Part shown: piece after piece, positions 1,407 to 46,061 of the stretch
How the letters are laid out: each line of letters starts with the position of its first letter
Numbering within the stretch: the stretch's first letter is position 1
Assembly (NCBI GenBank): GCA_964462665.1
Contig: CAYWYT010000001.1
Coordinates: 1 to 46,061 of the forward strand
Direction: 5' to 3'
DNA: 46,061 nt
DNA from: an uncultured Woeseiaceae bacterium
GTDB taxonomy: Bacteria > Pseudomonadota > Gammaproteobacteria > Steroidobacterales > Woeseiaceae
Position numbers and translations under genes: made by a program
The notes under the pieces: generated by a model
The model's database searches: none
What the model was told of the DNA's origin: nothing
Seen by the model: only the letters and a program-made list of their open reading frames with translations

Positions 1407-2051
1407 ATGCGAAACATGTTCTTGGCGATAATCGCCGGACCGATACTATTTGGATGCTTGAGTGCGGAAGATCCGATTGCATCGGTTGACGATGCCATCG
1501 CCGCATTGGAAAACAGCGCTCCGGCAATTTCTGGCACCCCAGCCTGGGGCACCAAGTACGACGAGATGTATGAGTTTGTGCCCAACGCCAGTGACGCCGA
1601 CGGCGATCTTCTTACCTTTAGTGTGCAAAACAAACCCGATTGGGCAAGCTTCGATTCGTCGACGGGCAAGCTCTACGGCGAACCTGCGATGACTGACCTC
1701 GGCGACTACAATGGGATCGTGGTGAGTGTGTCCGATGGAACTGACGGCGCATCTTTGCCATCATTTTCCGTCACTGTCAGCCAGACGGCGACGGGCGTTA
1801 TCACTCTGAACTGGGTCGCACCCAGCCAAAATACTGACGGGTCGCCGTTGATGGATTTGTCCGGATACAATATCTACTATCGAAAGAACTCTGGATCCTA
1901 CGTTCAGGAAATACAGATCGACAATCCGAGTGTCACAACTTTCGTCGTCGAACAATTGAGTCCTGCCACCTACCATTTCGCAGCTACTGCATTCAACTCG
2001 TCGGGCGTAGAGAGTTCATTTTCACGCGAAATTGCGTTGACTATTCAGTAA
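1407..2051 (+). CDS. putative lipoprotein with an Ig-like (putative Ig / He_PIG-type) domain followed by a fibronectin type III domain
   Basis: Signal peptide with the lipobox-like LFGC. The segment YEFVPNASDADGDLLTFSVQNKPDWASFDSSTGKLYGEP..DLGDYNGIVVSVSDG fits the 'putative Ig' repeat. LNWVAPSQNTDGSPLMDLSGYNIYYRK...TYHFAATAFNSSGVESS fits FN3. A GAGGGA SD sits 6 nt before the ATG. Confidence 0.8.
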   Translation: MRNMFLAIIAGPILFGCLSAEDPIASVDDAIAALENSAPAISGTPAWGTKYDEMYEFVPNASDADGDLLTFSVQNKPDWASFDSSTGKLYGEPAMTDLGDYNGIVVSVSDGTDGASLPSFSVTVSQTATGVITLNWVAPSQNTDGSPLMDLSGYNIYYRKNSGSYVQEIQIDNPSVTTFVVEQLSPATYHFAATAFNSSGVESSFSREIALTIQ

Positions 2052-2070
2052 GGTCGAGGCCGGAAGCCAC

Positions 2071-2097
2071 GACTCCGTTCGAAAGTGCGAACGAGTC
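2071..2097 (+). terminator. hairpin between the two surface-protein genes (weak attenuator/terminator candidate)
   Basis: GACTC(C)GTTC-gaaagtgc-GAACGAGTC, a 9-bp stem with a 1-nt bulge, followed by GCTTTC. There is only a short T tract. Confidence 0.25.
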
Positions 2098-2173: not shown

Positions 2174-4021
2174 ATGGATCGACGAGCACACTCGGTTTCA
2201 CTCATTCTGTTAATGGTGGCGCCGGTGACGTACGCACAGTCGGACTGCCCCGGTGGCGAGCTGTGGGAGCCATACACTCAAGTCTGTGCCGAAGTGCGTG
2301 ATCTTCGTAGCGCCTTTCCGCTCAGTAAAGTAACCGTTGCTGGCAAACCCGACACGGATCTGCCTGTACCGGGTTCGATGGCGGTCGGTACGGCATACAG
2401 TCCCAACCAGCTTGTCGCCCTCGAAAGCGGCCGCCTGCACACTAAGATGTTCGTCTATCCAAACGGTGTTAGTCCTGATGGTCCATTGCCAATCTTCTAT
2501 ACGACAGCAACATCGCGCGTAAATAGAGGCTTGGAACTGCTCGTGGCCTACTCGGACGCGCGCCCGGATATCAGTCGCCTCAATCTGTATGCCTGGACCT
2601 GCCTGCCAGACTATCCGTGCCCGGATGGCGAGACAGACCCAGGCTGGCAATGGGCCAGGAACCTGACAGAGCTGACCTGCAACATCACACAGGTCGTGGA
2701 CCAGGGCGGGCATGCACACAAGCAGCTCTATTACGCCAATCACACAGACAAACTCGATACCGGTTCACCCCCGCAGTGGAAGAGCGCCATATACCTTTGG
2801 AATTATTGCGATTCGGCTTGGGATCTTGCATGGCAACACACCTACCGACAGGACAAAGTCGATTGCTCGATACCGGGCGCCGGCTGTGCTTGGTGGGGAC
2901 CAAGCATCGAAATCTTCGGCAACGAACCGTATCCGCAGATTGCGGAACTGGGCTACGAGGAATCATTGCTCTATCACGATGGCGTATGGAGCCAGTTGCG
3001 GCCCAATGAGGCGGGGTTCCGTGATCCGGCGCGGTGGGCTACGACGACCCCGTGGCAGCTTTTTCATCTGGATCCGAACCGAAGCTACGGCGTGGGCAAC
3101 TTCCTCAATGAAAATGACGCACCGGTCATCGAGGGGCAAATGGTGCTCGAGACCCAGGAGGACGAGCCGTTGGACATCGAAACCGACAGCCTCGTAATCA
3201 GTGACCCAGACATCAATCCCGCGTATCACGTCGCCTTCGAATTGGCGTTGTATGCGGGCAACGACTATACGATCACAAACCGAACTCTGACACCGGCTGC
3301 CGATTTCGCAGGAACCCTAACAGTGCCGGTTACTGTCAACGACGGCGGAGCAAACAGTGAGGTTTTCAACCTAAGGATTGAAATCACTCCGGTCAATGAC
3401 GCACCCGTCATTGTTGGCCAGAATCCAGTCGAAGTGACGGAACGAACGCCGCTCGAAATCGTTTTGGCGGATCTAATTGTCGAGGACATCGACTCGGATG
3501 TCGGAGTACTGTCGATCGCCGTTCAGAACGGCGATGGTTATGAAATATCGGGCAACACGGTCACGCCGGAATTAGGTGTCATTGGCGATATTATGGTCGG
3601 TGTTACGGCAAGCGACTACGAACTGGAAAGTGCCCCCTTCGCTTTGCTCGTTACCGTAACGCCTGACGTTATAGCGCCCGTACTGACACTGCAAGGTAGC
3701 GAAACTGTGACAGTGGGGTTTGGAAGCGACTACCTGGACGCCGGGGCAACTGCGGTGGACAACGTGGATGGCAACATTTCAGACCGAATCGTTGTCGACT
3801 CCCCAGTCGATACTAGCCGCGCCGGATCTTACGCGGTCTCTTACACGGTCGCCGATCTCGCCGGGAACAGCGCTTCGATTACTCGCACAGTTGTCGTCAA
3901 AGCTGCGGTTATTGTGCCTCGAAGTAATGGTGGCGGCAGCATGTCGCTCCTGTTTGTGTTTGGGTTACTACTGTTCGGACGCCGTATTCGACGGAGAGGA
4001 ACTGGAAATCGCGCCAACTAG
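2174..4021 (+). CDS. secreted surface protein: novel Cys/Trp-rich N-domain, two cadherin-like NDAPV repeats, an Ig-like (DUF5011/HYR-like) domain and a GlyGly-CTERM-type sorting tail
   Basis: Signal peptide (..APVTYA/QSD). NENDAPVIEGQ and TPVNDAPVIVGQ repeats. DVIAPVLTLQGSETVTVGFGSDYLDAGATAVDNVDGNISD..AGSYAVSYTVADLAGNSA is the Ig-like domain. The C-terminus is NGGGSMSLLFVFGLLLFGRRIRRR (nt 3926-3997). Confidence 0.85.
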   Translation: MDRRAHSVSLILLMVAPVTYAQSDCPGGELWEPYTQVCAEVRDLRSAFPLSKVTVAGKPDTDLPVPGSMAVGTAYSPNQLVALESGRLHTKMFVYPNGVSPDGPLPIFYTTATSRVNRGLELLVAYSDARPDISRLNLYAWTCLPDYPCPDGETDPGWQWARNLTELTCNITQVVDQGGHAHKQLYYANHTDKLDTGSPPQWKSAIYLWNYCDSAWDLAWQHTYRQDKVDCSIPGAGCAWWGPSIEIFGNEPYPQIAELGYEESLLYHDGVWSQLRPNEAGFRDPARWATTTPWQLFHLDPNRSYGVGNFLNENDAPVIEGQMVLETQEDEPLDIETDSLVISDPDINPAYHVAFELALYAGNDYTITNRTLTPAADFAGTLTVPVTVNDGGANSEVFNLRIEITPVNDAPVIVGQNPVEVTERTPLEIVLADLIVEDIDSDVGVLSIAVQNGDGYEISGNTVTPELGVIGDIMVGVTASDYELESAPFALLVTVTPDVIAPVLTLQGSETVTVGFGSDYLDAGATAVDNVDGNISDRIVVDSPVDTSRAGSYAVSYTVADLAGNSASITRTVVVKAAVIVPRSNGGGSMSLLFVFGLLLFGRRIRRRGTGNRAN

Positions 4022-12241: not shown

Positions 12242-12673
12242 TTATGGTGTCTGCAATTCCAACTTACGCTTTCCCAAAATTCGCAATAAGGTATTTCTTC
12301 CGAAGCGGAGAATTGGATACATGAACCGAGCGACGCCCGGCGATCGAAACATCAATGCGTTTAGACGGTTGAAGGCGCCTGATGGCGAACTCAGCAACGC
12401 CAACATATGCAGGCAATCGGCGCCGTGATAGAAGCGACCACCATAGATGAGCACCATACCTTCGTCTAAATCCAGGGTTTCAGAGACGACCCGATCAACG
12501 ATGGCGCCGCCATCGCGAGCGTCGACCAACTCTATGTGGCCAATTGACTCCTGAAGTCGAACAAAACGGACATAGGCATTACAGACCGGGCACTCACCAT
12601 CGTATATCAGATAGTTTTCCCCGCTTCCTTCAATAGGATCTACTTCTTTGTCGTCCGTCAAATGATCACTCAA
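12242..12673 (-). CDS. DCC-family (DUF393) thiol-disulfide oxidoreductase
   Basis: LIYDGECPVCNAYVRF is the family-defining YDGxCxxC motif. The TTG start overlaps the upstream TGA (TTGA, 12670-12673). Confidence 0.7.
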   Translation of the reverse strand: MSDHLTDDKEVDPIEGSGENYLIYDGECPVCNAYVRFVRLQESIGHIELVDARDGGAIVDRVVSETLDLDEGMVLIYGGRFYHGADCLHMLALLSSPSGAFNRLNALMFRSPGVARFMYPILRFGRNTLLRILGKRKLELQTP

Positions 12674-13623
12674 GCTGAGCTACTCGTTTTTTGCGATAAA
12701 TCCGGGACTCTGTGGTTTGCGAGCCAGGCGAAGACCGCCGCCCATGGAACGTAAATCATGTACAACACTATCCACTGTGGAAATGGAGCGCGAAGCGTTA
12801 CATAGATGATGATGTGAAATGACAGGCCAAGCGGCAAATAGATCCACTTCAGTCTAGGGAAAAACAGTATCAGGAAAAACGTAGCCTGAAAAATCAACAC
12901 AATGACTTCGGAGAATTTCAGAAAATTGTGGAATTGGGAAACGTACAGCGCCAGGTCACTGTCATTTTTATACGCTTCAAGAATCATGTAGTACTGCAGC
13001 GAAATCCCGTTCGCCCATTCAAGGCCACCTCGGGTCAACTTTGAGACGACCGCTGACAAATACATCAAGGGGTAGAACAACTGCAGAAACAGAATGGGCC
13101 AGCCAGAATATTTATCCTTTACATCCAGCAGAATTTTCGATTCACCTACGGCACCGTTTCGCCGCCTTTTCAACCAGCTGTCCAAGCTCATGACCCGGCC
13201 GCTCGGACTTATTGCGAGCGAGATCAATGCCAACATCATGATCGCTTCCGGATGATGAATATCGCCGAACGAATACGTAAACGCCTGAATAACAATATTA
13301 AACAGCGCAAACAAAGCCAGACTGACATTGGTAAACAGTCCGACAAGCGATAGCAAGCCAAGCAAAAACGTGATCCAAAACAGACCAATCATAGTTGACG
13401 CATCGGGTAGTACTGGCCCTCCGAACGGTAGGGCAAGTATCTTCAAGACTAGCTGGGGCTCGTAGAGATAATCTGGAAGACTCAGCACATAAGTTAGCGC
13501 TGGAAAATTGTAGCTAAGCAGCAAATAGCACTGCAAAGCCACCAATACAACACGGAGCAACGCCAGATCAAAACACGCAGCCGGCCTGAACCAAAATTTT
13601 GCCCACCCATCGAGGGTTTTCAT
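12670..13623 (-). CDS. HTTM-domain polytopic membrane protein (vitamin K-dependent gamma-carboxylase-like)
   Basis: WAKFWFRPAACFDLALLRVVLV at the N-terminus, then ..YSFGDIHHPEAIMMLALISLAISPSGRVMSLDSW.. and ..YLSAVVSKLTRGGLEWANG.. follow the HTTM pattern (P.d..sLa.fR ... NH.yl..ll ... SlD.w ... Y..aG..Kl...W..G). About 8 hydrophobic helices. Confidence 0.65.
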   Translation of the reverse strand: MKTLDGWAKFWFRPAACFDLALLRVVLVALQCYLLLSYNFPALTYVLSLPDYLYEPQLVLKILALPFGGPVLPDASTMIGLFWITFLLGLLSLVGLFTNVSLALFALFNIVIQAFTYSFGDIHHPEAIMMLALISLAISPSGRVMSLDSWLKRRRNGAVGESKILLDVKDKYSGWPILFLQLFYPLMYLSAVVSKLTRGGLEWANGISLQYYMILEAYKNDSDLALYVSQFHNFLKFSEVIVLIFQATFFLILFFPRLKWIYLPLGLSFHIIIYVTLRAPFPQWIVLYMIYVPWAAVFAWLANHRVPDLSQKTSSSA

Positions 13624-14090: not shown

Positions 14091-15064
14091 TCGGAGTCAC
14101 TGGTTGGCGCATTAGCTTCCGACGCTGCAGAAACTATTTCTGCAACGGTATATTCTTTTATGCGACCTGCATGGGTGAATATTATCAACTCACCAATCAG
14201 GCCAAGTGCAAATACTTGCACGCCAAGAACCAGTAGCAATGATCCCAGCAAAAGGGCCGGTCGGTCTGCAAGCCCAACATCAAAGAACAGACGTTGCGAC
14301 ACCAGGATAAGCACAACTAAAGCGCCGAGTGCGGACACGACCATACCTACCATGCCAAAGAATCTAAGAGGCTTCTTGGTGAATCGCACGAGGAAAAACA
14401 CCGTGATGATGTCCAAAACTCGATGAAAGTACTCGCGCAGCCGATACCTGCCAGAGAAATCATCTTTGGGCGACTGTGCGACGTCGACCTCGACAACGTT
14501 GAAGCCCTGCCTGCTGGCAAGTACGGGGAAGAATCGGTGCAAGTCGCCATAGAGGTGGATCTCCTCAACGAGACGCCTACTAAATAGCCTCACGCCGCAA
14601 CCGAGGTCGTTGTACGCTTCGCCGCTAAGGCACTTCAACAAGTAGTGAAAGGTTTTCCGGCGCAAGGACTCAAAAAGACCGCCAGCCCGCGGCCAGCGTC
14701 GAGCGATAACAAGATCACAGGTGTCATAAGCTCGAAAAACCTGGCCAATAGATTCCGGTTCAATCTGGTGATACGCGGGAAGCGTCAGGATTGCATCACC
14801 CTGCGCCTCGTCGAATCCTGCGGATAGAACCGTAGACTCACCGAAGTACTTGGCTAACTGAATGGTTTTGAAACTTGTATCCCTCGTTCGCAGATCATCC
14901 AATTGCTCAACGACTGCATCATTGCCACCGTCCAAGACGAAAATCGTCTCATAGGTTCTGCCGGTTTCGTCGAGCGCAGTTTTGTAACCGCTATAAAGAT
15001 CTTCCAGATTGTCAACGCGCTGCAGGACTGGTATTACCACCGATATTTGTATCGCGTCACTCAT
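14087..15064 (-). CDS. GT2-family polyprenyl-phosphate glycosyltransferase paralogue with a degenerate DXD motif
   Basis: Colinear with its upstream neighbour, including the two C-terminal TM helices. However FVDDGSKD becomes FVLDGGND, and VTMDGDLQNDP becomes LTLPAYHQIEP. Confidence 0.75.
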   Translation of the reverse strand: MSDAIQISVVIPVLQRVDNLEDLYSGYKTALDETGRTYETIFVLDGGNDAVVEQLDDLRTRDTSFKTIQLAKYFGESTVLSAGFDEAQGDAILTLPAYHQIEPESIGQVFRAYDTCDLVIARRWPRAGGLFESLRRKTFHYLLKCLSGEAYNDLGCGVRLFSRRLVEEIHLYGDLHRFFPVLASRQGFNVVEVDVAQSPKDDFSGRYRLREYFHRVLDIITVFFLVRFTKKPLRFFGMVGMVVSALGALVVLILVSQRLFFDVGLADRPALLLGSLLLVLGVQVFALGLIGELIIFTHAGRIKEYTVAEIVSAASEANAPTSDSE

Positions 15065-16020
15065 GGATTACTCGTCGTCGAATGTGAAGCAGGAGTTGCA
15101 CGCATCGTTAATCTCGCAAGCCGGCCTAAATCGATATCGCCCGTCTTGTAAACCAGTTCGGCTAGCGCTCCATTTAGGAGCAGAAACACGCCGAGGGCGA
15201 GAAGCAATATGCCCGTACCAGCAGTTGCAAGCGGCATCTGCGGCTGCGAGAACAAAGCGAACACGCTAATAAAGAGACAGGCCAGACCGGCGGCAATGAA
15301 TGGCAATGACAAAATAGTGAACCACAACATGGGTCTGCTGGAGAAAGAAACTATCGTTTTAATTGTGAGCAAGTCAACCAGCACCTTATAGATTCTTCCC
15401 AGGCCGTACTTCGACTCGCCAAACTGGCGCGCATGGTGGCGGACCTTAACTTCGGCAACGCGGGATCCCGCCAGAGATGCCATAGCCGGAATGAACCTGT
15501 GCATGTCTGAGTACAAAGGAATTTCTTTAATTACTCTAGCTCGATAGGCCTTTAGAGAGCAGCCGTTGTCCTTGATGGGGACACCAGTAATTTTTCCAAT
15601 CATCCAATTTGCGATGCGCGACGGGATTTTTCTCGTAATCAGTTTATCTTGCCGATTAAAACGCCAGCCTACGGCGATGTCGAAGCCTTCCTCTAGCTTG
15701 GACACCAGCATGTCGATATCACGAGGATCATTCTGTAAATCGCCGTCCATTGTCACGATGACCTCGCCGACCGCGCAGTCAATACCCGCTGCCATCGCCG
15801 GCGTCTGACCGTAGTTGCGACGAAAACGAACAAGCCTCAGATTTGGATCTTGTAGAGCAATTTCTTTTGCAAGCTCAAATGTCCGATCTTTGCTGCCATC
15901 GTCAACAAAAATAATCTCATAGAGGTAATTGACTTCCGACATTGCCGACGCAATGGCAGCGTGCATGGCTTCGACACTTTCTTCTTCATTGAAAAGCGGC
16001 ACAACAATGGACAAAAACAT
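15061..16020 (-). CDS. GT2-family polyprenyl-phosphate glycosyltransferase (ArnC/GtrB/DPM1-like)
   Basis: LSIVVPLFNEEESV..EIIFVDDGSKDRT..RNYGQTPAMAAGID.A.GEVIVTMDGDLQNDP..DNGCSLKAYR..MHRFIPAMA, plus two C-terminal TM helices. The start was trimmed to ATG 16018-16020 (MFLSIVVP). The track ORF runs to 16167, across the divergent promoter. Confidence 0.85.
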   Translation of the reverse strand: MFLSIVVPLFNEEESVEAMHAAIASAMSEVNYLYEIIFVDDGSKDRTFELAKEIALQDPNLRLVRFRRNYGQTPAMAAGIDCAVGEVIVTMDGDLQNDPRDIDMLVSKLEEGFDIAVGWRFNRQDKLITRKIPSRIANWMIGKITGVPIKDNGCSLKAYRARVIKEIPLYSDMHRFIPAMASLAGSRVAEVKVRHHARQFGESKYGLGRIYKVLVDLLTIKTIVSFSSRPMLWFTILSLPFIAAGLACLFISVFALFSQPQMPLATAGTGILLLALGVFLLLNGALAELVYKTGDIDLGRLARLTMRATPASHSTTSNP

Positions 16021-16130
16021 TCTCTGTCGACCCGTAGACTGACCTTGTAAGCAAAGCATTGTATAGCAGATCGTGAAAGCACCAACGACTGACTTCACAA
16101 TAACCTGATGGATGGCGGCGAGTGTCGGAG

Positions 16131-16146
16131 TGTGACCCAGTTCACA
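16131..16146. promoter_or_regulatory. perfect CRP/Vfr/Clp-type site TGTGA-N6-TCACA
   Basis: TGTGAcccagtTCACA lies in the 162-bp divergent gap between ATG 16020 (-) and ATG 16183 (+). Confidence 0.55.
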
Positions 16147-16182
16147 CTTTTGCAATATCGCATTCATCGGATACGTGGCATA

Positions 16183-17079
16183 ATGCCGAGCGACGCCTCT
16201 ATAAAAATCAATTACTTAACTGGCGACTTCACGTTATCTTGTGGTATCTCGGCGGGACAAAAATTGGGCAACGACATTACCATCCTGGACGCTCATGTCC
16301 ACATACACGATTGCTTCCCAATCGTGGATTTTTTGAACAATTCACGGCGCAATTTCTGTCAGGCCGCGTCTCAAGACCACCCGAACTCAAGTTTTACGGC
16401 TGTACTAATGTTGACCGAGTCTTACGGTGCTGACTGGTTTTCAACCCTCGCTGAACTGGCCGCCAAGAAGGCCGGCGTCAACGGACAGTGGTCACTGACG
16501 GGCACCGCGGAGCCGCAATCAATGATCGCACGAGATTCTGAAGGCGGCGAATTGGTCATCATCGCGGGCCGACAAATTGTCACGGCCGAACGTCTGGAGA
16601 TTTTGGCGCTGGGAATCACCGATTTACCACCTGACGGCATGCCGATTAGGGATGTCATTCACGACGTGCAAACATACGGTGCGCTCTGTGTACTTCCTTG
16701 GGGCTTCGGCAAGTGGACCGGCAAGCGTGGCCAGATTGTTGCCAACATCTTGGCTGAAGACCAGGGAGATAATTTTTTTCTTGGTGACAACGCGGGACGT
16801 TTGGGTCTGTGGCCCGATCCACCGGAATTCCGGATTGCACGGGACTCCGGCATACAAATTCTGCCAGGCTCGGACCCTCTTCCCTACACCAGCGGCGCAA
16901 TGTCACCTGGACGATTCGGCTTCGTACTATCTGAGCCGTTGGATCAGGATCGTCCGTTTTCATCGATTCGGCGATCACTGGTCGACGAGTCGAAACAAGC
17001 AAAGCCGTACGGTCGCCTTGAGGGATTAGTGCCGTTCGCGACTAACCAAATTCGTATGCAGCTGAGAAAACTGCAGTGA
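16183..17079 (+). CDS. hypothetical protein, possible metal-dependent hydrolase (HxH motif)
   Basis: ILDAHVHIHDCF near the N-terminus (amidohydrolase/PHP-like HxH) and LPGSDPLPY late in the protein. No firm family assignment. The start was trimmed to ATG 16183 (track: 16108). Its stop overlaps the next GTG (GTGA). Confidence 0.5.
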   Translation: MPSDASIKINYLTGDFTLSCGISAGQKLGNDITILDAHVHIHDCFPIVDFLNNSRRNFCQAASQDHPNSSFTAVLMLTESYGADWFSTLAELAAKKAGVNGQWSLTGTAEPQSMIARDSEGGELVIIAGRQIVTAERLEILALGITDLPPDGMPIRDVIHDVQTYGALCVLPWGFGKWTGKRGQIVANILAEDQGDNFFLGDNAGRLGLWPDPPEFRIARDSGIQILPGSDPLPYTSGAMSPGRFGFVLSEPLDQDRPFSSIRRSLVDESKQAKPYGRLEGLVPFATNQIRMQLRKLQ

Positions 17080-18254
17080 AGCGTAAAGTACTGGTGTTGG
17101 CGCCGCAGCCGTTTTTCAGCCCGCGAGGTACGCCTTTCAGCGTTTACTACCGCACCATGGTGCTTTCGGAACTTGGGTACGAGGCCGATTTGCTGACCTA
17201 TGGTCAGGGACAGGATGTCGATATTCCCGGTGTCAGAATCATTCGCATACCTGCCTTTTCTTTTCTGGGCAAGGTCAAGACGGGACCGTCCGCACTAAAA
17301 GCATTTCTCGACATATTTATGTTCCTCTGGACAGTTGGGCTTTTGCTACGCAGGCGCTATGCATTCGTGCACGCTCACGAAGAGGCCGTCTTTTACTGTC
17401 GGTTTTTGAAGCCGATTTTTCGATTCAAGATGATTTACGACATGCACTCCAGCTTGCCGCAGCAGCTGGATAACTTCGAATTTACGAAATCAAGATTGAT
17501 TAAGAAGATTTTCAAATGGTTGGAAGATTCTTCGCTGCGCGCCGCAGACGCGGTCATAACTATTTGTCCGGACCTTTCCGATTATGTGATCGACCAGATC
17601 GGTGATGACCCAAAGCACACATTGATAGAAAATTCGATTTTTGAGCCTGTGCGACTTAAGGATCGTAAGGAAGGCTCAAACGCCAATGTGACTGCGATGC
17701 AATTCAGCCCTGACAAACGACTTGTTATTTATGCAGGAACATTCGAAAGATACCAGGGGTTAGACTTGCTTGTGCCCGCCTTTGCTCAGGTGCTGCGCGA
17801 AATTCCAGATGCATATCTACTGATGATCGGTGGTGAATCTGAGCAGGTCGATCAGATGCGCCAGTTGGCTCAGGACGGCGACTGCGGTGACAGTATTTTA
17901 TTTACCGGTCGCGTTCCTCAGTCTTTGGCGACGCATTACAACTCAATCGCGCATGTCCTGACTTCCCCTCGTTCCGCGGGAACGAATACGCCTCTCAAAG
18001 TGTACGAACAACTGGCAAGCGGCAAGCCGCTCGTCGCAACACGTATCTATTCACATACCCAGGTTTTGTCGGACGAAAACTCATTTCTCGTGGATCCGAC
18101 AATTGACGATCTGGCGAGGGGCATCGTATTAGCGCTCTCCGATGAACAACTGGTCGCTGAAAAAGTCGCCGCGGCAAAACGCCTGTATGAAACTGAATAC
18201 TCCCGATCGGCGTATGTTTCAAAGATGCGGCACCTATTGGATCGTTTGAGCTAA
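17076..18254 (+). CDS. GT4-family glycosyltransferase
   Basis: KVLVLAPQPFFSPRGTPFSVYYRT..LSELGYEADLLTYG at the N-terminus. The C-terminal half has the GT-B pattern (..TSPRSAGTNTPLKVYEQLASGKPLVATRI). Confidence 0.8.
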   Translation: MKRKVLVLAPQPFFSPRGTPFSVYYRTMVLSELGYEADLLTYGQGQDVDIPGVRIIRIPAFSFLGKVKTGPSALKAFLDIFMFLWTVGLLLRRRYAFVHAHEEAVFYCRFLKPIFRFKMIYDMHSSLPQQLDNFEFTKSRLIKKIFKWLEDSSLRAADAVITICPDLSDYVIDQIGDDPKHTLIENSIFEPVRLKDRKEGSNANVTAMQFSPDKRLVIYAGTFERYQGLDLLVPAFAQVLREIPDAYLLMIGGESEQVDQMRQLAQDGDCGDSILFTGRVPQSLATHYNSIAHVLTSPRSAGTNTPLKVYEQLASGKPLVATRIYSHTQVLSDENSFLVDPTIDDLARGIVLALSDEQLVAEKVAAAKRLYETEYSRSAYVSKMRHLLDRLS

Positions 18255-20140
18255 TGTGTGGAATCGTTGGTATCGCGTCGTTCCCGGGCGGGAGCGTCCC
18301 GAATCAGGAAGAATTATCGCGCATGTGCAGTAGCATCCTGCATCGCGGCCCGGATGAAGACGGCCGTGAAATTATCGGTTCTGTCGCACTGGGTATGCAG
18401 CGCCTTGCAATTATCGACCTCGATGGCGGTTCGCAACCAATTCGAAACGAAGACGGTACCGTCCGTGTCGTCTTCAATGGAGAGATCTACAATTTTCAGG
18501 AGATTCGTCGCGATCTCGAACACGCCGGGCATGTGTTTCGCACCAACTCCGATACTGAAATTCTCGTTCACGCCTATGAGCAATACGGAGACGACTTTGT
18601 CCAGCGCTTGAACGGCATGTTCGCTTTTGCGCTACATGACATGGCCAGGCGACGACTACTGATTTCTCGCGACCACCTCGGCATTAAGCCGCTGTTCTAC
18701 TACAAATCGGCCAATCACCTCGTTTGGGGATCAGAGATAAAGGCACTGTTGGCCACTCGGCGGGTGCCGCGAGAGATTGACCTCAACGCCGTAGGCGAGT
18801 TCTTTGCCTGGGAATACGTGCCCGGTGCCGGAACGCTTTTTAAGGATATTTACAAGCTGGAGCCTGGTCATACTTTGGTGGTTGACCTCGATTCAGGCGA
18901 TATCACGGACTCGTGTTATTGGGACTTACCGCTTGAACCCGAAGATTCATCGCTAAGTGAGGCTGAATGGATCGAGCGCGTCGACGAGACACTTGTCGAG
19001 GCGGTGCGGCGGCAGATGATATCGGACGTTCCACTTGGAGCATTTCTGAGTGGAGGCGTGGATTCGTCACTCGTCGTTGCGGCGATGGGTGATGCGAAGA
19101 CCTTCAGTATTGGATTTGATGATCCTTCTTATAACGAACTCAAGTACTCGAAGGAGGTCGCCGAACACCTCAACGTCTCTCATACAACCGAGGTTATTCA
19201 GCCGCAGGTCGCCGATCTGTTCGAGCACCTTATGAATTTCATGGATGACCCGATCGGGGACTTCTCGATATTTCCGACCTACCTGGTGTCGAAACTTGCG
19301 CGCGAACACGTCACGGTCGCCTTGAGTGGCGATGGTGGTGACGAGCTATTTGGCGGATACGAGACCTATCTGGCCAATGACATGGCGAGAACATACGCAC
19401 GTGTCCCGGCGCCAATTCGGAACCGCATGGTAGAGCCAATCCTGAATCGATTTAGCCCAAGACCGGCGAAGAAGGGGCTTATCAATAAAGCGAAGCGCTT
19501 CGTGGAAGGGATGCACGAGCCTGAATCGCTGGGTCATGCACGGTGGCGAATCTTCATGAGCGATGAGCAACGCAAGGGCTTCTTCAGTAATGATGCGTAC
19601 GACGCTATCGACCGCAGTGCCGGAGCGCACATCCTGGCGCTGTATGAGAAAGCGCGGAATCTCCAGCCGCTGAATCGAAGCCTGTACGTTGATACTCGCA
19701 GCTATCTTGTCGACAATTGTCTCGTCAAGACAGACCGCATGTCCATGGCAGTATCGCTTGAAGCGCGGGTGCCTTTTCTGGACGTAAAACTGGCTGAACT
19801 CGCCTTCCGCATCCCGGAAAAATTCAAGATTGAGGGCCGTGAGACGAAAGCGCTGCTGAAGAAGATAGCATCCCGCAAGATACCTCGAAGCTGTGTTTAT
19901 CGGCCCAAGGAAGGTTTCTCCATTCCGATCAAGCACTGGCTCGGAACGCAATTCCGTCCCTTTCTGGAACAAGCCACTAATCCCGATCGACTGAGCGAGG
20001 CCGGCCTGTTTGACGTGCATACAATCGCCCGAATGAAGCGTGAACATCTTGAAGGATCAGCTAATCACAGTCATGTATTGTGGTCTCTGATTGTATTTGA
20101 TCAATGGAAGTCAAAGTGGCTAGAGGGAACACTGCCTTGA
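18254..20140 (+). CDS. asparagine synthase (glutamine-hydrolysing) family amidotransferase
   Basis: MCGIVGI start (Cys2 nucleophile), RGPD, GEIYN, and the PP-loop LSGGVDSS. Full length at 628 aa. The ATG overlaps the upstream TAA (TAATG). Confidence 0.9.
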   Translation: MCGIVGIASFPGGSVPNQEELSRMCSSILHRGPDEDGREIIGSVALGMQRLAIIDLDGGSQPIRNEDGTVRVVFNGEIYNFQEIRRDLEHAGHVFRTNSDTEILVHAYEQYGDDFVQRLNGMFAFALHDMARRRLLISRDHLGIKPLFYYKSANHLVWGSEIKALLATRRVPREIDLNAVGEFFAWEYVPGAGTLFKDIYKLEPGHTLVVDLDSGDITDSCYWDLPLEPEDSSLSEAEWIERVDETLVEAVRRQMISDVPLGAFLSGGVDSSLVVAAMGDAKTFSIGFDDPSYNELKYSKEVAEHLNVSHTTEVIQPQVADLFEHLMNFMDDPIGDFSIFPTYLVSKLAREHVTVALSGDGGDELFGGYETYLANDMARTYARVPAPIRNRMVEPILNRFSPRPAKKGLINKAKRFVEGMHEPESLGHARWRIFMSDEQRKGFFSNDAYDAIDRSAGAHILALYEKARNLQPLNRSLYVDTRSYLVDNCLVKTDRMSMAVSLEARVPFLDVKLAELAFRIPEKFKIEGRETKALLKKIASRKIPRSCVYRPKEGFSIPIKHWLGTQFRPFLEQATNPDRLSEAGLFDVHTIARMKREHLEGSANHSHVLWSLIVFDQWKSKWLEGTLP

Positions 20141-21117
20141 GAAAAACTCTTGTAACCGGCGCGACCGGGTTTACGGGCGGCAATGTCGCGAAACGTCTCG
20201 TAAAAGAAGGGAACGATGTTGTTGCATTCGTCCGCGAATCGAGCGATACGGCCGGCCTGGAGTCTATTGGCGTGGAATGCCGTTGCGTCGATATCCGCAA
20301 CGACCGTGATGTTGAGAGGAATTTCGCGGGCATCGGCCGGGTGTTTCACATTGCGGCAGCTTACAGGTCCGAACATGCAGATCACGGCGAATTTCACGAT
20401 GTCAATGTCAACGCAACTCGAAATTTGCTGGAGGCTTCCGTCAAGAACGGTGTCGACCGCTTTGTGCATTGTTCCACGGTTGGCGTCCAGGGCGAGATCG
20501 AGGATCCGCCAGCGTCAGAAGATTACCGCAATAATCCGGGTGATCATTACCAAGAATCAAAGCTCGACGGTGAACTCCTGGCGCTGGAGTATTTTCGAGA
20601 TCGCCTGCCGGGCTGCGTCGTGAGGCCGGTCGGAATTTATGGCCCCGGGGATACTCGATTCCTGAAGCTATTCAAGCCTATTCAGAAGGGCCACTTCGTC
20701 ATGATCGGTAAGGGCGATGTTCTCTATCACATGACGTATATCGACGATCTCGTCGACGGCTTCATGCTGGCCGGTGAGAATGATGCCGCGCTCGGCGAGG
20801 TATTTACAATCGCTGGCCCGGAATATTCGACGATTGGTGCTCTGGTCGATACGATTGCCGACGTCCTGGATAAGCCGCGTCCCCGACTGCGTGTGCCCTT
20901 CGCACCCGTTTATGCCGCGTCGGTTGTCTGTGACGTGATGTGTCGTGCCATTCGGATTAATCCACCACTGTATCCCCGTCGCGTTGAGTTCTTTGAGCTG
21001 GATCGAGCGTTCTCGACCGACAAGGCACAACGTATGTTGGGGTACAAACCAAAAACCAGCCTCCGGGACGGCATAGCCCGAACCGCCGCCTGGTATCGCC
21101 AGAACGGTCTGATTTGA
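20104..21117 (+). CDS. NAD-dependent epimerase/dehydratase (extended SDR)
   Basis: LVTGATGFTGGNVAKRL (GxxGxxG) and YQESK (YxxxK). The start is uncertain: ATG 20104 overlaps asnB by 37 nt, and TTG 20137 gives a TTGA overlap. Confidence 0.85.
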   Translation: MEVKVARGNTALRKTLVTGATGFTGGNVAKRLVKEGNDVVAFVRESSDTAGLESIGVECRCVDIRNDRDVERNFAGIGRVFHIAAAYRSEHADHGEFHDVNVNATRNLLEASVKNGVDRFVHCSTVGVQGEIEDPPASEDYRNNPGDHYQESKLDGELLALEYFRDRLPGCVVRPVGIYGPGDTRFLKLFKPIQKGHFVMIGKGDVLYHMTYIDDLVDGFMLAGENDAALGEVFTIAGPEYSTIGALVDTIADVLDKPRPRLRVPFAPVYAASVVCDVMCRAIRINPPLYPRRVEFFELDRAFSTDKAQRMLGYKPKTSLRDGIARTAAWYRQNGLI

Positions 21118-22623
21118 ATGGCGGCCCTAGCTCGCAACCCGACGGCGCTGGAGCGTGAATCCTTCGACATCATTGTGATTGGCGGTGGCATTTACGGGGC
21201 GATGTTGTCTTTGGAAGCAGGCCGCTATGGACTTCGTTCACTGATGCTGGAGCGCTCCGACTTCGGCGGCAGCACTAGCTTCAATAATCTTCGCATCGTG
21301 CACGGTGGCCTTAGATATCTGCAGACCCTGCATTTGTCCCGTTTTCAGGAGTCGGTAAGCGAGCGCCGCTGGTTTTTGCAGCACTTTCCCGATCTGGTCC
21401 GCCCCCTCCCCTGCATGATGCCTCTCTATGGTGGCTTGGTACGAAACAAAGCGGTAATGCGTGCTGCCCTGACCGCTAACGATTGGCTATCCAATTCCAG
21501 GAATGTCGCTTTACCACCTGAATGCCGACTGCCCAATGGCCGTATACTAAATTCGGCGGATACCATTAATAAGTATCCGCTCGTTCGTCGCGCCGGACTG
21601 AACGGTGCTGCGCTGTGGTACGACGCCGTTATGCCCGAGTGTCATCGGGTTCTTATGGAGGTTATGCACTGGGCCGCCGAATCAGGTGCAGCCGCTCTAA
21701 ATTACGTCGAGGTGGACAAGCTGATCCAATCCGGTCGCCGCGTCACGGGCGTCATTGCGTCCGACAAGATAAGCGGCGTTCAGCACGAATTCCGGGCCCC
21801 CGTAGTTGTAAACGCGGCTGGACCGGATTCTGTCCGGTTATTGAAACGTTTCGGTATCGACATGCCGAAACTCTTTCGGCCATCCTGGGCATGGAATCTG
21901 CTGTTCGACCGGGAATCGCTATCACGGAGTGCGTTGGCAATTCAGCCGCCAACACCCGGTGGCCGAATGTATTTTGTCCATTCGTTTGGCGGCCGGCTGT
22001 TTGCCGGAACCGGCCACGCACCCGCTAAGGCCGACGACGTATCAATCCTGGCATCGTCAGACGAGGTGTTGGCGATGATCGGCGACTTAAATTGTGCAAT
22101 ACCTGGGCTGCGGCTTGAGGCGTCAGAGATCAATCGGGTGTTCGCCGGTCGCCTTCCAGTGAAGCATCCCGGCAGTATTGAGCTGGCTGACACGGCAACA
22201 CTCGTGAATCACGCCAAGCAAACGGGGATAGACGGCTTGTTCACTGTATCCGGCGTTAAATACACCACCGCCCGATCAACCGCTGCGGCCCTTATTCGAC
22301 TTATCGTGGAGTCACTCGGCGATCATCCGGCGCGCCGCGAAACAGCGTTACCCAGTCGTCCAACGCCTGTCGAATTCGATTTGCGCAGCGACAGTATCGC
22401 GACCCCTCAAAATCGGGAGAGCCGGCTGAGATATATGATCGAAGCTGAAGCGCCGACATCGCTGGAAGATCTGTTGATGCGCCGCGGCAACCTTGCGGAC
22501 GACAAGTCAATGGCCGAATACCTTGCTGATGACGCCTGCTCTGCTTTTGGCTGGGATAACGAGCGCTCGAAGCTGGAGAAAACGTCTTTGTTGCGGAGTT
22601 TTTCGGCAGGGCGGGCAATTTGA
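21118..22623 (+). CDS. FAD-dependent oxidoreductase, glycerol-3-phosphate dehydrogenase (GlpD/DAO)-like
   Basis: FDIIVIGGGIYGAMLSLEAGRYGLRSLMLERSDFGGSTSFNNLRIVHGGLRYLQ matches the GlpD N-terminal pattern. The ATG directly follows the upstream TGA (TGAATG). Confidence 0.75.
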   Translation: MAALARNPTALERESFDIIVIGGGIYGAMLSLEAGRYGLRSLMLERSDFGGSTSFNNLRIVHGGLRYLQTLHLSRFQESVSERRWFLQHFPDLVRPLPCMMPLYGGLVRNKAVMRAALTANDWLSNSRNVALPPECRLPNGRILNSADTINKYPLVRRAGLNGAALWYDAVMPECHRVLMEVMHWAAESGAAALNYVEVDKLIQSGRRVTGVIASDKISGVQHEFRAPVVVNAAGPDSVRLLKRFGIDMPKLFRPSWAWNLLFDRESLSRSALAIQPPTPGGRMYFVHSFGGRLFAGTGHAPAKADDVSILASSDEVLAMIGDLNCAIPGLRLEASEINRVFAGRLPVKHPGSIELADTATLVNHAKQTGIDGLFTVSGVKYTTARSTAAALIRLIVESLGDHPARRETALPSRPTPVEFDLRSDSIATPQNRESRLRYMIEAEAPTSLEDLLMRRGNLADDKSMAEYLADDACSAFGWDNERSKLEKTSLLRSFSAGRAI

Positions 22624-22800
22624 TGGTCAATTCAGGCTAAATGGCCAATCTGTGACGGCCTGCTCATGGGCTAGTGTGAAAGAGTACCGATCTGTGATGT
22701 GAATTAGATCATCATAAGTCTACTGGATATTTGGCAAAATTCGGGGTTGGTGTCAGGTATCGAACAAATCGCATTTGTACGGACAAACGGAATTTAAAGA

Positions 22801-34402: not shown

Positions 34403-34602
34403 CGGGGTTCCGCAATTCTTTAATGATCGGCCACATTTAATACGCTTCGCCGCCGAATATCGACGTACCTGGACCTTCGTATTTCAGCCGGACATTATAA
34501 CGCATGGATAGGTCAAATAGCTGCTGACTGGTTCACGGCTATGGACCAAATCACGGTCACACTTTCGAGTGTTTTCGCAACTGTTGGCAGCGGCGGTAGC
34601 TT

Positions 34603-36244: not shown

Positions 36245-36284
36245 CGTGACATACGTCACGCTTTAATTAGTGACACAGTTCAAA
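36245..36284. promoter_or_regulatory. two adjacent degenerate CRP-like sites
   Basis: cGTGAcatacgTCACg (36245-36260; 6-bp perfect arms CGTGAC/GTCACG) and aGTGAcacagtTCAaA (36269-36284) lie upstream of the 36177 start. Confidence 0.3.
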
Positions 36285-43302: not shown

Positions 43303-44835
43303 TTAATTCAGTTCTCTTTCCGGCCAGCGCTCGCGCCCCAGCATGCACCGGCAAATCCACAACGTACCGAAAAGATAAGCAAACCCAAAGATCAGCGGTA
43401 CGAACATCGCCCCGACGGCAATAAGTGTCACGAAGGGACCCGTGTCGCCGAGATAGCGTACGTCGATTAACCACACCAGTAACCCGCTGACCACTGCTCC
43501 TGACAATAGCCGACCGAGCGTCGACCAGTCCTGAAGGCGACCGAACGGAATCTGCATTACGAACGCCGCACGGCGAAAGTTGAAAAGCCTGGTAACAAGC
43601 GTACCGACAAGCCCTCCCAATGCGACACCGGGCAGCCCGAACGTCATTGCGCCTGCATAGCTCAGCACAGCTGAAGCCAGCAGTACGCCAGCGCTCACCT
43701 TGGCTACGAACGATCCCTGTTCGTAGACGATCAAGACTGTCGCCAGCTCGACACTCATCAATATCATTGCCAGCGAGTACACACGAATTATGGGGACTGC
43801 CTCCAGGTATTTGTCGGTAAACAAGACCTCGACCAACGGCGCCGCGAACAGCCAGATATAAACCACCGCGGGATAAACCAAAAAGCAAATAACCAAGTTT
43901 CCGCGGTTATTGAGCTCCAGCGACCGTGACACGTCGCCGGTTGCATGTGTTTTGCTCATCTTGGGGATAAGAACATTTCCGACAGATTTTCGCAGCAGCC
44001 GCAAGATCGAATTGAAGCTTCCGGCAATAGCGAACATCGCGAGTGCTTCCGGGATGAAGAATCCAACAACCAGCCATTGCTCGATCCGCCCGCGCGCTTG
44101 AGCAAGGATGCCGGAAAGACCGAACGGAAATGCAAATTTCATTTGTCTGCGCATTCCCGCCCATCGAAGAGACTGCAACCGGCTGCCGTACCGGGTCGCA
44201 CCGTAATAGACGAGTAGCACCATCTGTGCCGCTGCGAAGAAAAGAAGTGCTATAAAAATGCTCTCCAGATCGCGCGTGAACCACGCAGTCGCAGTAATCA
44301 ATACTGCGCGCAAGAGCGACAAGCAAATTATTGCCCGGGCCTGCCAACGAATGTCACCATCCGCATTTGGTAAAGTGAGTATTATCGACGACACGACCCA
44401 GAGAAACGCGAAAGCACCGAGTAGAGCATCTCTTTCAGTGAGCGCCCGAATCTGATCAGGCAACCAACTCTCGCCACTGGCTAGAGCCGCGGCGACGGGT
44501 AAGCTGACGATTGACAGAAACATTATTGTTTGACTAACGAAAGCTGCTCGTTCAACCGGTTCGGAGCGCGGCAAGAAATACAGCAAACTGCGCACCATGC
44601 CCATAGGCAGCAATAGGGTCAGGCTGTTGCCTACCAGCCAAAACAGTCGATACTGACCAAAGTCCGTAGGTGAAATCAATCGAACGAGCACCATCGGTAC
44701 CAGCAGTCGCAATCCGGCTTCAAATGCGTTAGCTAACGATAACCGCAACACTTCGCCGCGCGTACCTTGAATGCTTGTCATGGGTAGTTGTGTTTCCGTG
44801 ATCGAGCGTGCTGCCATGATGCCGATATCAAACAA
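43303..44835 (-). CDS. wzx: Wzx-type oligosaccharide flippase (MOP superfamily, Polysacc_synt)
   Basis: About 12-14 TM helices. The N-terminus ..LANAFEAGLRLLVPMVLVRLISPTDFGQYRLFW matches the family opening (..i..r.L.p..fG.y). The start is uncertain: TTG 44835, ATG 44817 or ATG 44781. Confidence 0.75.
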   Translation of the reverse strand: MFDIGIMAARSITETQLPMTSIQGTRGEVLRLSLANAFEAGLRLLVPMVLVRLISPTDFGQYRLFWLVGNSLTLLLPMGMVRSLLYFLPRSEPVERAAFVSQTIMFLSIVSLPVAAALASGESWLPDQIRALTERDALLGAFAFLWVVSSIILTLPNADGDIRWQARAIICLSLLRAVLITATAWFTRDLESIFIALLFFAAAQMVLLVYYGATRYGSRLQSLRWAGMRRQMKFAFPFGLSGILAQARGRIEQWLVVGFFIPEALAMFAIAGSFNSILRLLRKSVGNVLIPKMSKTHATGDVSRSLELNNRGNLVICFLVYPAVVYIWLFAAPLVEVLFTDKYLEAVPIIRVYSLAMILMSVELATVLIVYEQGSFVAKVSAGVLLASAVLSYAGAMTFGLPGVALGGLVGTLVTRLFNFRRAAFVMQIPFGRLQDWSTLGRLLSGAVVSGLLVWLIDVRYLGDTGPFVTLIAVGAMFVPLIFGFAYLFGTLWICRCMLGRERWPERELN

Positions 44836-45095: not shown

Positions 45096-45111
45096 TGTGA
45101 CGCAAGTCACA
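45096..45111. promoter_or_regulatory. perfect CRP/Vfr/Clp-type site TGTGA-N6-TCACA
   Basis: aatcTGTGAcgcaagTCACAgttt lies in the 460-bp divergent gap between wzx (-) and the FG-GAP gene (+). A GATAGT -10-like hexamer at 45132-45137 would put the site near -41.5. Confidence 0.55.
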
Positions 45112-45295
45112 GTTTTATAGCCAATTTCAAGGATAGTGTCACAGAACAAGGTGTAGTGTTTGCCTGCTGCCAATTAAGAAGAATCAAAACCTGAGCAGCC
45201 CGCCTCGCGCCAAATTACAAAAAAATTGAGACTTCAATGGCGGGCACCTATCCCAATGTTGGAAAAAAACAACACTATAACTAACAGGTATTATT

Positions 45296-46061
45296 ATGAA
45301 AAAGAGCGCTAATTCTTGTCCAGATAACCAGAATCCTGGGATATTCACGACGCGCAAGTCAGGTGGTTTCGTCCGCTCCGGTATTGCCGGCTGGGTGGCC
45401 ACTTTGGGCGTCCTGATCGTGGCACTCCCGGCTATTTCCGCGTTACAGGGAAATACGACCGTCGGCGACGTCAGTAGCGACGAAAATCGCACCCGTTCGG
45501 CTGCGATCGGCGACTTGAATGGCGACGGATTTCCCGATCTCGTGGTTGCAAATGAATCCGCGCAGCGAAATCAGATCTACTTTGGCGACGGCCTGGGCGG
45601 CTTCGGAGCAGCGGTCGACCTGGACAATCGGCAGGAAGTTACGGACTCAGTCGATCTTGCGGACGTTGACAATGACGGAGACCTTGATCTGGTGATCGGC
45701 AACCGCTCGACGACACAAGACAATCGCCTTTACACAAATAACGGCTCGGGTATTTTTCAGGCCAGAAATACGGCGGTCAACGACAGCACCTTTACGAGCC
45801 GCCAAACGAGTTCAGTTCGGTTCGCCGACCTCAACCAGGACGGCGATCCAGACATCGTCGTTGCCAATCGCAACTCGCGAAACGTTGTCTTACTTGGCAA
45901 TCCGGCAGCGGGCGTATTCGGGTTCCCAACTAACGACGATCTCGCTAACTCAGGTCAAACGGACTCCAGTTCAGTGGCCGTTGGCGATCTGAATGGCGAT
46001 GGTGTGCCTGAGATTGTGGTTGCGAATCGTCAAAATGCGAGAAACGATTTGTACATTAACA
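45296..46061 (+). CDS. FG-GAP/VCBS-repeat secreted protein, 5' part (continues beyond the window)
   Basis: My own translation from ATG 45296: MKKSANS...GIAGWVATLGVLIVALPAISA (signal/anchor). This is followed by at least four repeats of the type GDLNGDGFPDLVVAN..NQIYFGDG / DVDNDGDLDLVIGN..NRLYTNNG / ADLNQDGDPDIVVAN / GDLNGDGVPEIVVAN..NDLYIN. It is open to the window end and absent from the ORF track. Confidence 0.85.
   Translation, partial: MKKSANSCPDNQNPGIFTTRKSGGFVRSGIAGWVATLGVLIVALPAISALQGNTTVGDVSSDENRTRSAAIGDLNGDGFPDLVVANESAQRNQIYFGDGLGGFGAAVDLDNRQEVTDSVDLADVDNDGDLDLVIGNRSTTQDNRLYTNNGSGIFQARNTAVNDSTFTSRQTSSVRFADLNQDGDPDIVVANRNSRNVVLLGNPAAGVFGFPTNDDLANSGQTDSSSVAVGDLNGDGVPEIVVANRQNARNDLYIN

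Follow-up and report, generated by a model that had tools for sequence, protein, structure and literature searches.

The perfect palindrome TGTGACCCAGTTCACA in the divergent intergenic region of this DNA (site 1) is very probably a functional operator of the CRP type that serves the plus-strand exopolysaccharide operon. We also consider it probable, with more reservation, that the site activates this operon and does not repress it. As a regulatory site it is solid but fairly ordinary; what is unusual is its conserved position, predicted at about -52, beside an invariant extended -10 element. In the mechanism that we propose, a dimer of the CRP family (CRP/Vfr/Clp type) would bind site 1 with its centre some 52 bp before the point where transcription of the plus operon begins. 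From there, on the helix face used by class II activators but one turn further out, it would aid the binding of RNA polymerase, with the conserved T-rich flank between the site and the polymerase taking part. A second perfect palindrome (site 2) would be another operator of the same regulator, in a near-canonical class II position (about -42) at the gene of a giant FG-GAP/cadherin adhesin. A single cyclic-nucleotide-sensing regulator would then control both matrix polysaccharide and adhesin in a Woeseiaceae-related lineage.

To our knowledge, almost nothing is known about gene regulation in Woeseiaceae. The presence of two conserved operators with fixed promoter geometry indicates that matrix production there may be under the direct control of a cyclic-nucleotide regulator of the CRP family. 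The sites also provide concrete DNA probes and promoter fragments, and the placement near -52 beside an invariant extended -10 lends itself well to testing how spacing governs CRP activation. Table 1 summarizes the features discussed below. All coordinates refer to the window, which is the whole stretch of 46,061 bp that was analysed.

Table 1. Features of the two operator regions and of the genes next to them.
Feature	Position	Strand	Basis or remark
GT2 glycosyltransferase, first gene of the divergent operon	15061..16020	-	ATG 16020; N-terminus MFLSIVVPL conserved
Minus promoter block TCTGCTATACAATGC (minus-strand reading), putative -10 TACAAT of the GT2 operon	16058..16072	-	conservation
Minus block TTATTGTGAAGT, CRP-like half-site (TGTGA) only	16092..16103	-	conserved upstream of the -10 block
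Site 1, perfect CRP-type palindrome TGTGACCCAGTTCACA	16131..16146	.	sequence read directly
Promoter-proximal flank cTTTTGCAAT (consensus nTTTnGCGAT)	16147..16156	+	74% identity vs ~30% background
TGGCATAAT, putative extended -10 (TG-n-CATAAT) of the plus-operon promoter	16176..16184	+	conservation
Predicted transcription start of the plus operon	16189..16192	+	from the -10 position
Leader block AAAAATCAATTACTTA (consensus AAAA[T/A]CAATAACTT)	16203..16218	+	present in 13/13 loci
PHP-fold phosphoesterase-like gene, first of the plus operon	16264-17079	+	TTG start, structure model
Plus operon: PHP-like, GT4 glycosyltransferase, AsnB-like amidotransferase, NAD epimerase, FAD oxidoreductase	16264..22623	+	may extend downstream
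Oligosaccharide flippase (Polysacc_synt_3), 504 aa, divergent from the FG-GAP gene	43303..44817	-	domain match
Site 2, perfect palindrome TGTGACGCAAGTCACA between the divergent flippase and FG-GAP genes	45096..45111	.	pattern search
TAGTGTCACA (consensus GGATAsTGTCACAG, window 45131-45144), 22-23 nt after site 2	45134..45143	+	conservation
FG-GAP repeat protein gene, runs off the window end	45296..46061	+	orthologues >900-1100 aa with FG-GAP, cadherin and Ig domains

Rarity and conservation of the palindrome

A pattern search for the perfect core TGTGA-N6-TCACA returned two matches in the window, namely site 1 and site 2. Dinucleotide-preserving shuffles contained 0.06 perfect cores on average, and none of 100 shuffles reached two. 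Matches with one mismatch (one found, about 1.3 expected) and with two mismatches (14 found, about 18 expected) are at chance level, and the two perfect sites are thus outliers. Both lie in intergenic DNA, which accounts for 8% of the window. A weight matrix was built from the orthologous site-1 sequences alone, with the window excluded. When the window was scanned with it, sites 1 and 2 ranked top with 25.3 and 18.6 bits; the next match, in coding DNA, scored 14.2 bits, and the null 95th percentile of the window maximum was 16.9 bits.

The preliminary description of this DNA had reported the perfect core of site 1 as one of two in the window, and had read it as a CRP/Vfr/Clp-type operator in a divergent promoter region. 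The pattern search and the shuffles bear out the first statement, and rarity together with the conservation in relatives argues for the second. The distances given there were also correct, as ATG 16183 is 44.5 nt and ATG 16020 is 118.5 nt away from the centre at 16138.5. A scatter of equally good matches in coding DNA, which had been named as a reason for doubt, is absent both from the near-matches, where coding ones are at chance, and from the top of the matrix ranking.

For comparison with relatives, we collected loci that encode relatives of the PHP-like protein, the first product of the plus operon, from GTDB genomes (80 loci), from JGI metagenomes (80 loci) and by exact-protein look-ups of the closest metagenomic relatives. 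A site with no mismatch or one was found at the matching position in all 12 of the other independent loci, where the PHP-like protein is 47-73% identical (L001, L082, L084, L003, which is identical here to L134, L002 from Woeseiaceae, and L162-L168). The 13-locus comparisons in this work consist of the window and these 12 other distinct metagenome or MAG loci. When the protein identity is at least 46.6%, the site precedes the aligned start codon by 131-138 nt in every locus except L083 (133 nt in the window); L164 and L165 have it 119-120 nt from a differently called start. All ten core positions are perfect in 15 of the 17 orthologous sites, and the other two carry TCACG, in which the last base differs.

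Among the 13 loci, pairwise identity is 97% at the ten half-site positions and 56% at the six spacer positions. It is 74% over the ten bases after the site (nTTTnGCGAT) and 30-32% in the rest of the intergenic DNA. The spacers vary (CCCAGT, CTCAGT, ACTGGT, CACAGT, CCGGGG, CGCAGT, ACTGCA, CCTGGT, ACCAGT, TCTAGT) without a compensatory pattern. The contrast between half-sites, spacer and flanks therefore points to recognition of DNA by a protein, and not to shared ancestry or to an RNA or DNA hairpin; at 30% flank identity the loci are not recent copies of one sequence. In the 63.6 kb of L162-L172, every match with at most one mismatch is at an orthologous position; by chance, 0.06 perfect cores would be expected in this DNA. 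In the 161 GTDB and JGI loci (1.04 Mb), there are seven perfect cores, and six of them are at most 200 nt upstream of the homologous gene.

Homologous loci that are more distant, among them those of other gammaproteobacteria, cyanobacteria and Acidobacteriota, lacked the module of operator, -10 and leader block. L083, a contig of 1,549 bp whose protein is 54% identical, is the sole close relative that has none of the three elements. Its upstream DNA is G+C-rich and unrelated, so that the module appears to be replaceable. L047 and L063 have sites with no mismatch or one about 190 nt upstream of the homologous gene; these lack the TGGCATAAT architecture and were not counted as orthologous.

Weaker CRP-like matches were also noted in short intergenic gaps of the window: CGTGACATACGTCACG and AGTGACACAGTTCAAA at 36245-36284, with their centres 24 bp apart (starts 36245 and 36269), TGTGAATTAGATCATC at 22693-22713 (start 22698), and two more at 34522-34555 (starts 34522 and 34540). 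Six or seven of the best eleven matrix matches are intergenic, compared with 8% expected. None of these weak intergenic sites reaches the median that shuffles give for the window maximum, and they are not claimed as operators.

Promoter architecture and the operon served

The element TGGCATAAT is invariant in 12 of the 13 loci, L165 having AGGCATAAT instead, and its general form (T/A)GGCATAAT is found in all of them. The offset from the site start to (T/A)GGCATAAT is 45 nt in ten loci, 44 nt in two and 46 nt in one. Of possible core promoter elements only this one is conserved; the positions after it, and those 11 nt before it, carry about zero information. There is no -35 element conserved at 16-19 bp from the -10 in the 13 loci. 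A generic sigma-70 promoter and terminator scan of 15950-16330 found no full -35/-10 pair and no terminator-like feature, which fits an activator-dependent extended -10 promoter without proving one. A conserved extended -10 combined with no recognisable -35 is the usual signature of activator dependence. TTGCAA at 16150-16155 was considered as a -35 and rejected, since it is 23 bp from the -10. Readings of TGGCATAAT as a sigma-54 (GG-N10-GC, -24/-12), sigma-28 (TAAA-N15-GCCGATAA) or sigma-32 element were likewise rejected, as no partner element was present at the required spacing. For the flank nTTTnGCGAT we infer a role as an extended contact of the regulator or a contact of the polymerase alpha-CTD.

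The centre of site 1 is 40.5 bp before the first base of the -10 hexamer, which places it at about -52 (-51.5 to -52.5) if transcription starts near 16190, as predicted. According to PMC2859248, citing Gaston et al. (1990), E. coli CRP works best at -41.5 and -61.5 of sigma-70 promoters and activates only very weakly near -50. Site 1 would thus belong neither to class I (-61.5 and beyond) nor to class II (-41.5). This weak activation would agree with a CRP-type operator that acts negatively on the plus promoter, either by blocking upstream contacts of the polymerase or by holding a repressor that its ligand releases, as with Clp and c-di-GMP. An extended -10 promoter can function without a -35, and in Vibrio cAMP-CRP represses biofilm polysaccharide genes. 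On the other hand, site 1 overlaps neither the -10 nor the start, and the missing -35 suggests a promoter that needs an activator. The spacing, constant to within 1 nt on one helix face and 10 bp beyond that of site 2, points to a face-specific contact with the polymerase. We consider negative action unlikely, and prefer activation from site 1.

The preliminary description had taken ATG 16183 as the start codon of the plus operon. This ATG has to be given up, as it is inside the invariant TGGCATAAT (the last two bases of the element and the next G). The first gene has 1,072 homologues, typically of 270-275 aa, and their alignment begins only at residue 28 of the long reading frame. L001, whose protein is 73% identical, has an in-frame stop within the supposed N-terminal extension, and there the gene call begins at the equivalent TTG. 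TTG or GTG is conserved at the aligned start position, and in a structure model of the long frame residues 1-27 have a pLDDT of about 50 while the remainder is above 90. From homologue length, the stop in L001, codon conservation and the low pLDDT together, the start is TTG 16264.

Although the encoded protein matched no Pfam or NCBIfam family, its model (pLDDT 88.8) has TM0559, PsfC, EndoQ and RNase AM as best structural matches, with TM-scores of 0.43-0.60, and we confidently predict a PHP-type metal-dependent phosphoesterase fold. For annotation, the gain is thus a corrected start for the first gene of the operon and its probable identification as PHP-fold phosphoesterase-like. This family, in which D-x-H-V-H and PWGFGKW are invariant motifs, has more than 1,000 homologues in gammaproteobacteria, cyanobacteria, Acidobacteriota, Nitrospirota and other groups, and its gene is consistently followed by those of a GT4 enzyme and an AsnB-like amidotransferase.

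Between the predicted transcription start and the TTG, a leader block of 15-16 nt, AAAA(T/A)CAAT(A/T)ACTT, follows the -10 at a distance of 20-25 nt in each of the 13 loci, and it would be part of the 5' leader. RNAalifold on the 13 leaders gave no consensus structure. When compared with the IHF consensus WATCAANNNNTTR, five of the 13 copies are exact and the rest are one base off. Candidate roles for the block are an IHF site, an operator of another regulator, or a translation or antitermination signal.

The preliminary description had assigned site 1 to either or both of the divergent operons. On the minus strand, the operon consists of two GT2 genes, two genes for proteins of unknown function and a gene for a DCC1-like protein. 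The block TCTGCTATACAATGC is kept in 11 loci at a constant distance from the GT2 start codon, and TTATTGTGAAGT is located 22-23 nt upstream of it. As a 16-mer, TTATTGTGAAGT would be centred at about -40.5 from the predicted minus start (~16051); its promoter-proximal partner half is not conserved. The regulator of site 1 could also act at the minus promoter through this half-site, which we regard as a lead. Control of the GT2 operon, or of both operons, from site 1 itself is suggested by its place between divergent genes, with the GT2 start codon 118 nt away, by this conserved TGTGA half-site of the minus promoter, and by the ability of CRP to activate from distal class I positions. The distances argue against this. 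The gap between site 1 and the minus-promoter blocks measures 38 nt in the window but 139 nt in L001 and between 83 and 167 nt in other loci, without phasing among them, whereas the spacing to the plus promoter is fixed within 1 nt; site 1 would also be near -87.5 of the predicted minus start, where no class I site is expected. By this measure, site 1 goes with the plus operon, and for the minus operon (38 to 167 nt, not phased) the earlier assignment is quite doubtful.

The second operator and the adhesin promoter

Site 2 was followed in three orthologous loci (L170, L171 and L172), which were reached through homologues of the adjoining flippase. All three keep the divergent arrangement of the flippase and a giant FG-GAP/cadherin/Ig protein, and all three have a perfect core between the two genes (TGTGAATTGCGTCACA, TGTGACCTGGATCACA and TGTGACCGGGTTCACA, respectively). 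L170 shares a contig with L162, and L171 with L167, both of which carry a conserved site 1, while L172 and the MAG with L003 derive from one sequencing run.

The centre of site 2 is 30.5 bp from the first base of the conserved TAsTGT hexamer, and this spacing is exactly 10 bp shorter than that of site 1. If TAsTGT is the -10, site 2 would be at about -42 (-41.5/-42.5), with the geometry of class II. Alternatively, GGATAsTGTCACAG could be a second, weak half-site. In L170 (2647-2662), this block makes a CRP-type site with one mismatch, its centre 32 bp from that of the perfect one, and site 2 may therefore be a tandem operator instead of a single one.

The regulator and the surrounding locus

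The sequence TGTGA-N6-TCACA is the specificity of the CRP/Vfr/Clp subgroup within the CRP-FNR superfamily. From the box and this established knowledge of the family, site 1 is of the CRP/Vfr/Clp type and not of the FNR, NtcA or CooA type. All 17 sites read TGTGA...TCACA, and none has the FNR-type box TTGAT-N4-ATCAA. Three properties of such a box are seen here, namely a 16-bp inverted repeat, a frequency above chance in promoter DNA and conservation of the half-sites. The site of L168, TGTGATCTAGTTCACA, is close to the E. coli CRP consensus.

With E. coli CRP as query, tblastn on the window and 172 loci found no CRP-family gene in the window or in any gammaproteobacterial locus among them. The matches were in two cyanobacterial loci only, where a Crp-family gene is located about 2 kb upstream of the PHP-like homologue (L081, ~1675-2175; L022, ~1583-2083, minus strand). 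Neither of these loci has a TGTGA-N6-TCACA site with at most one mismatch. Among the open reading frames of the window, no CRP-type or other recognisable DNA-binding domain was present.

Partly on account of this missing gene, a regulator outside the CRP family may be proposed for the palindrome, for example a locus-specific repressor that recognises a TGTGA-type inverted repeat. The flank nTTTnGCGAT is also asymmetric and one base out of register with the flank of E. coli CRP sites, and a position of -52 is atypical for CRP (PMC2859248). We judge this improbable, given that 15 of the 17 sites agree with the CRP/Vfr/Clp box at every one of the ten core positions, that L168 approaches the E. 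coli consensus, that site 2 has the predicted class II geometry, and that the locus has no regulator gene of its own to offer. That the palindrome is a chance match, a structural hairpin or a terminator with no regulatory role has a negligible probability: it was first seen in a single 46-kb window, and 200 mononucleotide shuffles occasionally yield a perfect core, but 12 + 3 independent loci conserve it, with half-sites that do not vary and without compensatory changes, and it has no terminator-like feature and no Rfam match, and, being upstream of both predicted promoters, would not be transcribed.

A CRP-type operator is therefore the reading that we compare with known systems. The class II CRP promoters of E. 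coli, such as galP1 (-41.5), have the same 16-bp TGTGA-N6-TCACA box together with weak core promoter elements. Site 2 resembles them in its predicted geometry (-41.5/-42.5), whereas site 1 would be one helical turn further upstream (~-52), the starts on our side being predictions from sequence. At the aer promoter of E. coli, a CRP site at -49.5 is optimal and activates a sigma-28 promoter (PMC2859248). There, as is proposed for site 1, CRP binds between the class I and class II positions on an activating helix face. The promoters differ in that aer has the sigma-28 element GCCGATAA, while the plus promoter has a sigma-70-type extended -10 (TG-n-CATAAT) with no TAAA-type -35 conserved 11 nt upstream.

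In other bacteria, the control of biofilm matrix genes by cAMP-CRP or Vfr (Vibrio cholerae vps; the Vfr regulon of Pseudomonas aeruginosa) is mostly indirect or repressive, as known from experiment. In those systems, too, a global cyclic-nucleotide regulator is wired to exopolysaccharide and adhesin genes; the difference is that direct operators at two promoters are proposed here, by comparative genomics alone. The regulon of Xanthomonas Clp, a CRP homologue inhibited by c-di-GMP, shares the box and the link to extracellular polysaccharide and enzymes, and the window likewise carries a c-di-GMP riboswitch. The host differs, being Woeseiaceae-related with a G+C content of ~52% and no xanthomonad. 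Clp is described in Xanthomonadales/Lysobacterales, and the nearest named relatives here belong to Woeseiaceae, so that the xanthomonad analogy is weakened. The sole link of site 1 to c-di-GMP is the riboswitch 15 kb away. A literature search on CRP with PEP-CTERM systems or with Woeseiaceae found nothing relevant.

A bolder and rather speculative version is that a CRP-type dimer near -52 with an invariant extended -10, no -35 and a conserved T-rich/GCGAT linker forms an activation architecture that is undescribed for sigma-70, and that the regulator might be a Clp-like sensor of c-di-GMP. If this were true, either the regulator would touch RNA polymerase in a new way, or an alternative sigma factor that has gone unrecognised would be at work. 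With a Clp-like regulator, the riboswitch-controlled adhesins at one end of the locus and the operator-controlled polysaccharide and adhesin genes would form a single second-messenger circuit in a clade that is among the most abundant of marine sediment bacteria.

As judged from its genes, the whole window is one large locus for cell-surface polysaccharide and adhesins. The gene order PHP-like, GT4, AsnB-like is kept in L001 and L162-L168. For the AsnB-like protein, the nearest model is the XrtA/PEP-CTERM amidotransferase, with a score below the cut-off. Counting the operons described above, the locus has several GT4 and GT2 genes, and it also encodes a carbamoyltransferase, a heparinase II/III-like protein, a Wza-like exporter, a chain-length determinant with a separate tyrosine autokinase, a UDP-glucose dehydrogenase, four sulfotransferases, a Wzy-like polymerase and a flippase. 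Surface proteins with Ig, cadherin and FG-GAP domains are found at both ends. Two further details of the preliminary description fared differently. Its c-di-GMP riboswitch was recovered as c-di-GMP-I-GGC (RF03167, 1175-1258, plus strand, 70.3 bits, E 9e-15), and this was the only match in an Rfam scan of the whole window, with none at site 1 or in the leader. The label 'HTTM' for the other operon could not be reproduced, as the 317-aa protein had no Pfam or NCBIfam match at the thresholds used. This protein is a multi-pass membrane protein (12670-13623, minus strand), with a DCC1-like thiol-disulfide oxidoreductase as its downstream neighbour (12242-12673, minus strand), and L001 has the same set of genes, L168 a part of it.

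For two proteins of the locus, the nearest named relatives come from Woeseiaceae MAGs (order Woeseiales, Gammaproteobacteria). The G+C content of the window ranges from 48 to 57%, and the stretch was found in DNA runs of marine sediment metagenomes and in no RNA run. The Woeseiaceae and related bacteria, which live attached to surfaces, rank with the most abundant in marine sediments (PMC12175321).

Among the genes of the window, none was recognised as encoding an exosortase or rhombosortase. The riboswitch is upstream of genes for surface proteins of the He_PIG/fn3 type (1407-2051) and the cadherin/Ig-like type (2174-4021, plus strand). The latter protein, of 615 aa, ends in SNGGGSMSLLFVFGLLLFGRRIRRR, with glycines, a hydrophobic helix and an arginine cluster, which resembles a sorting tail of the GlyGly-CTERM or exosortase type.
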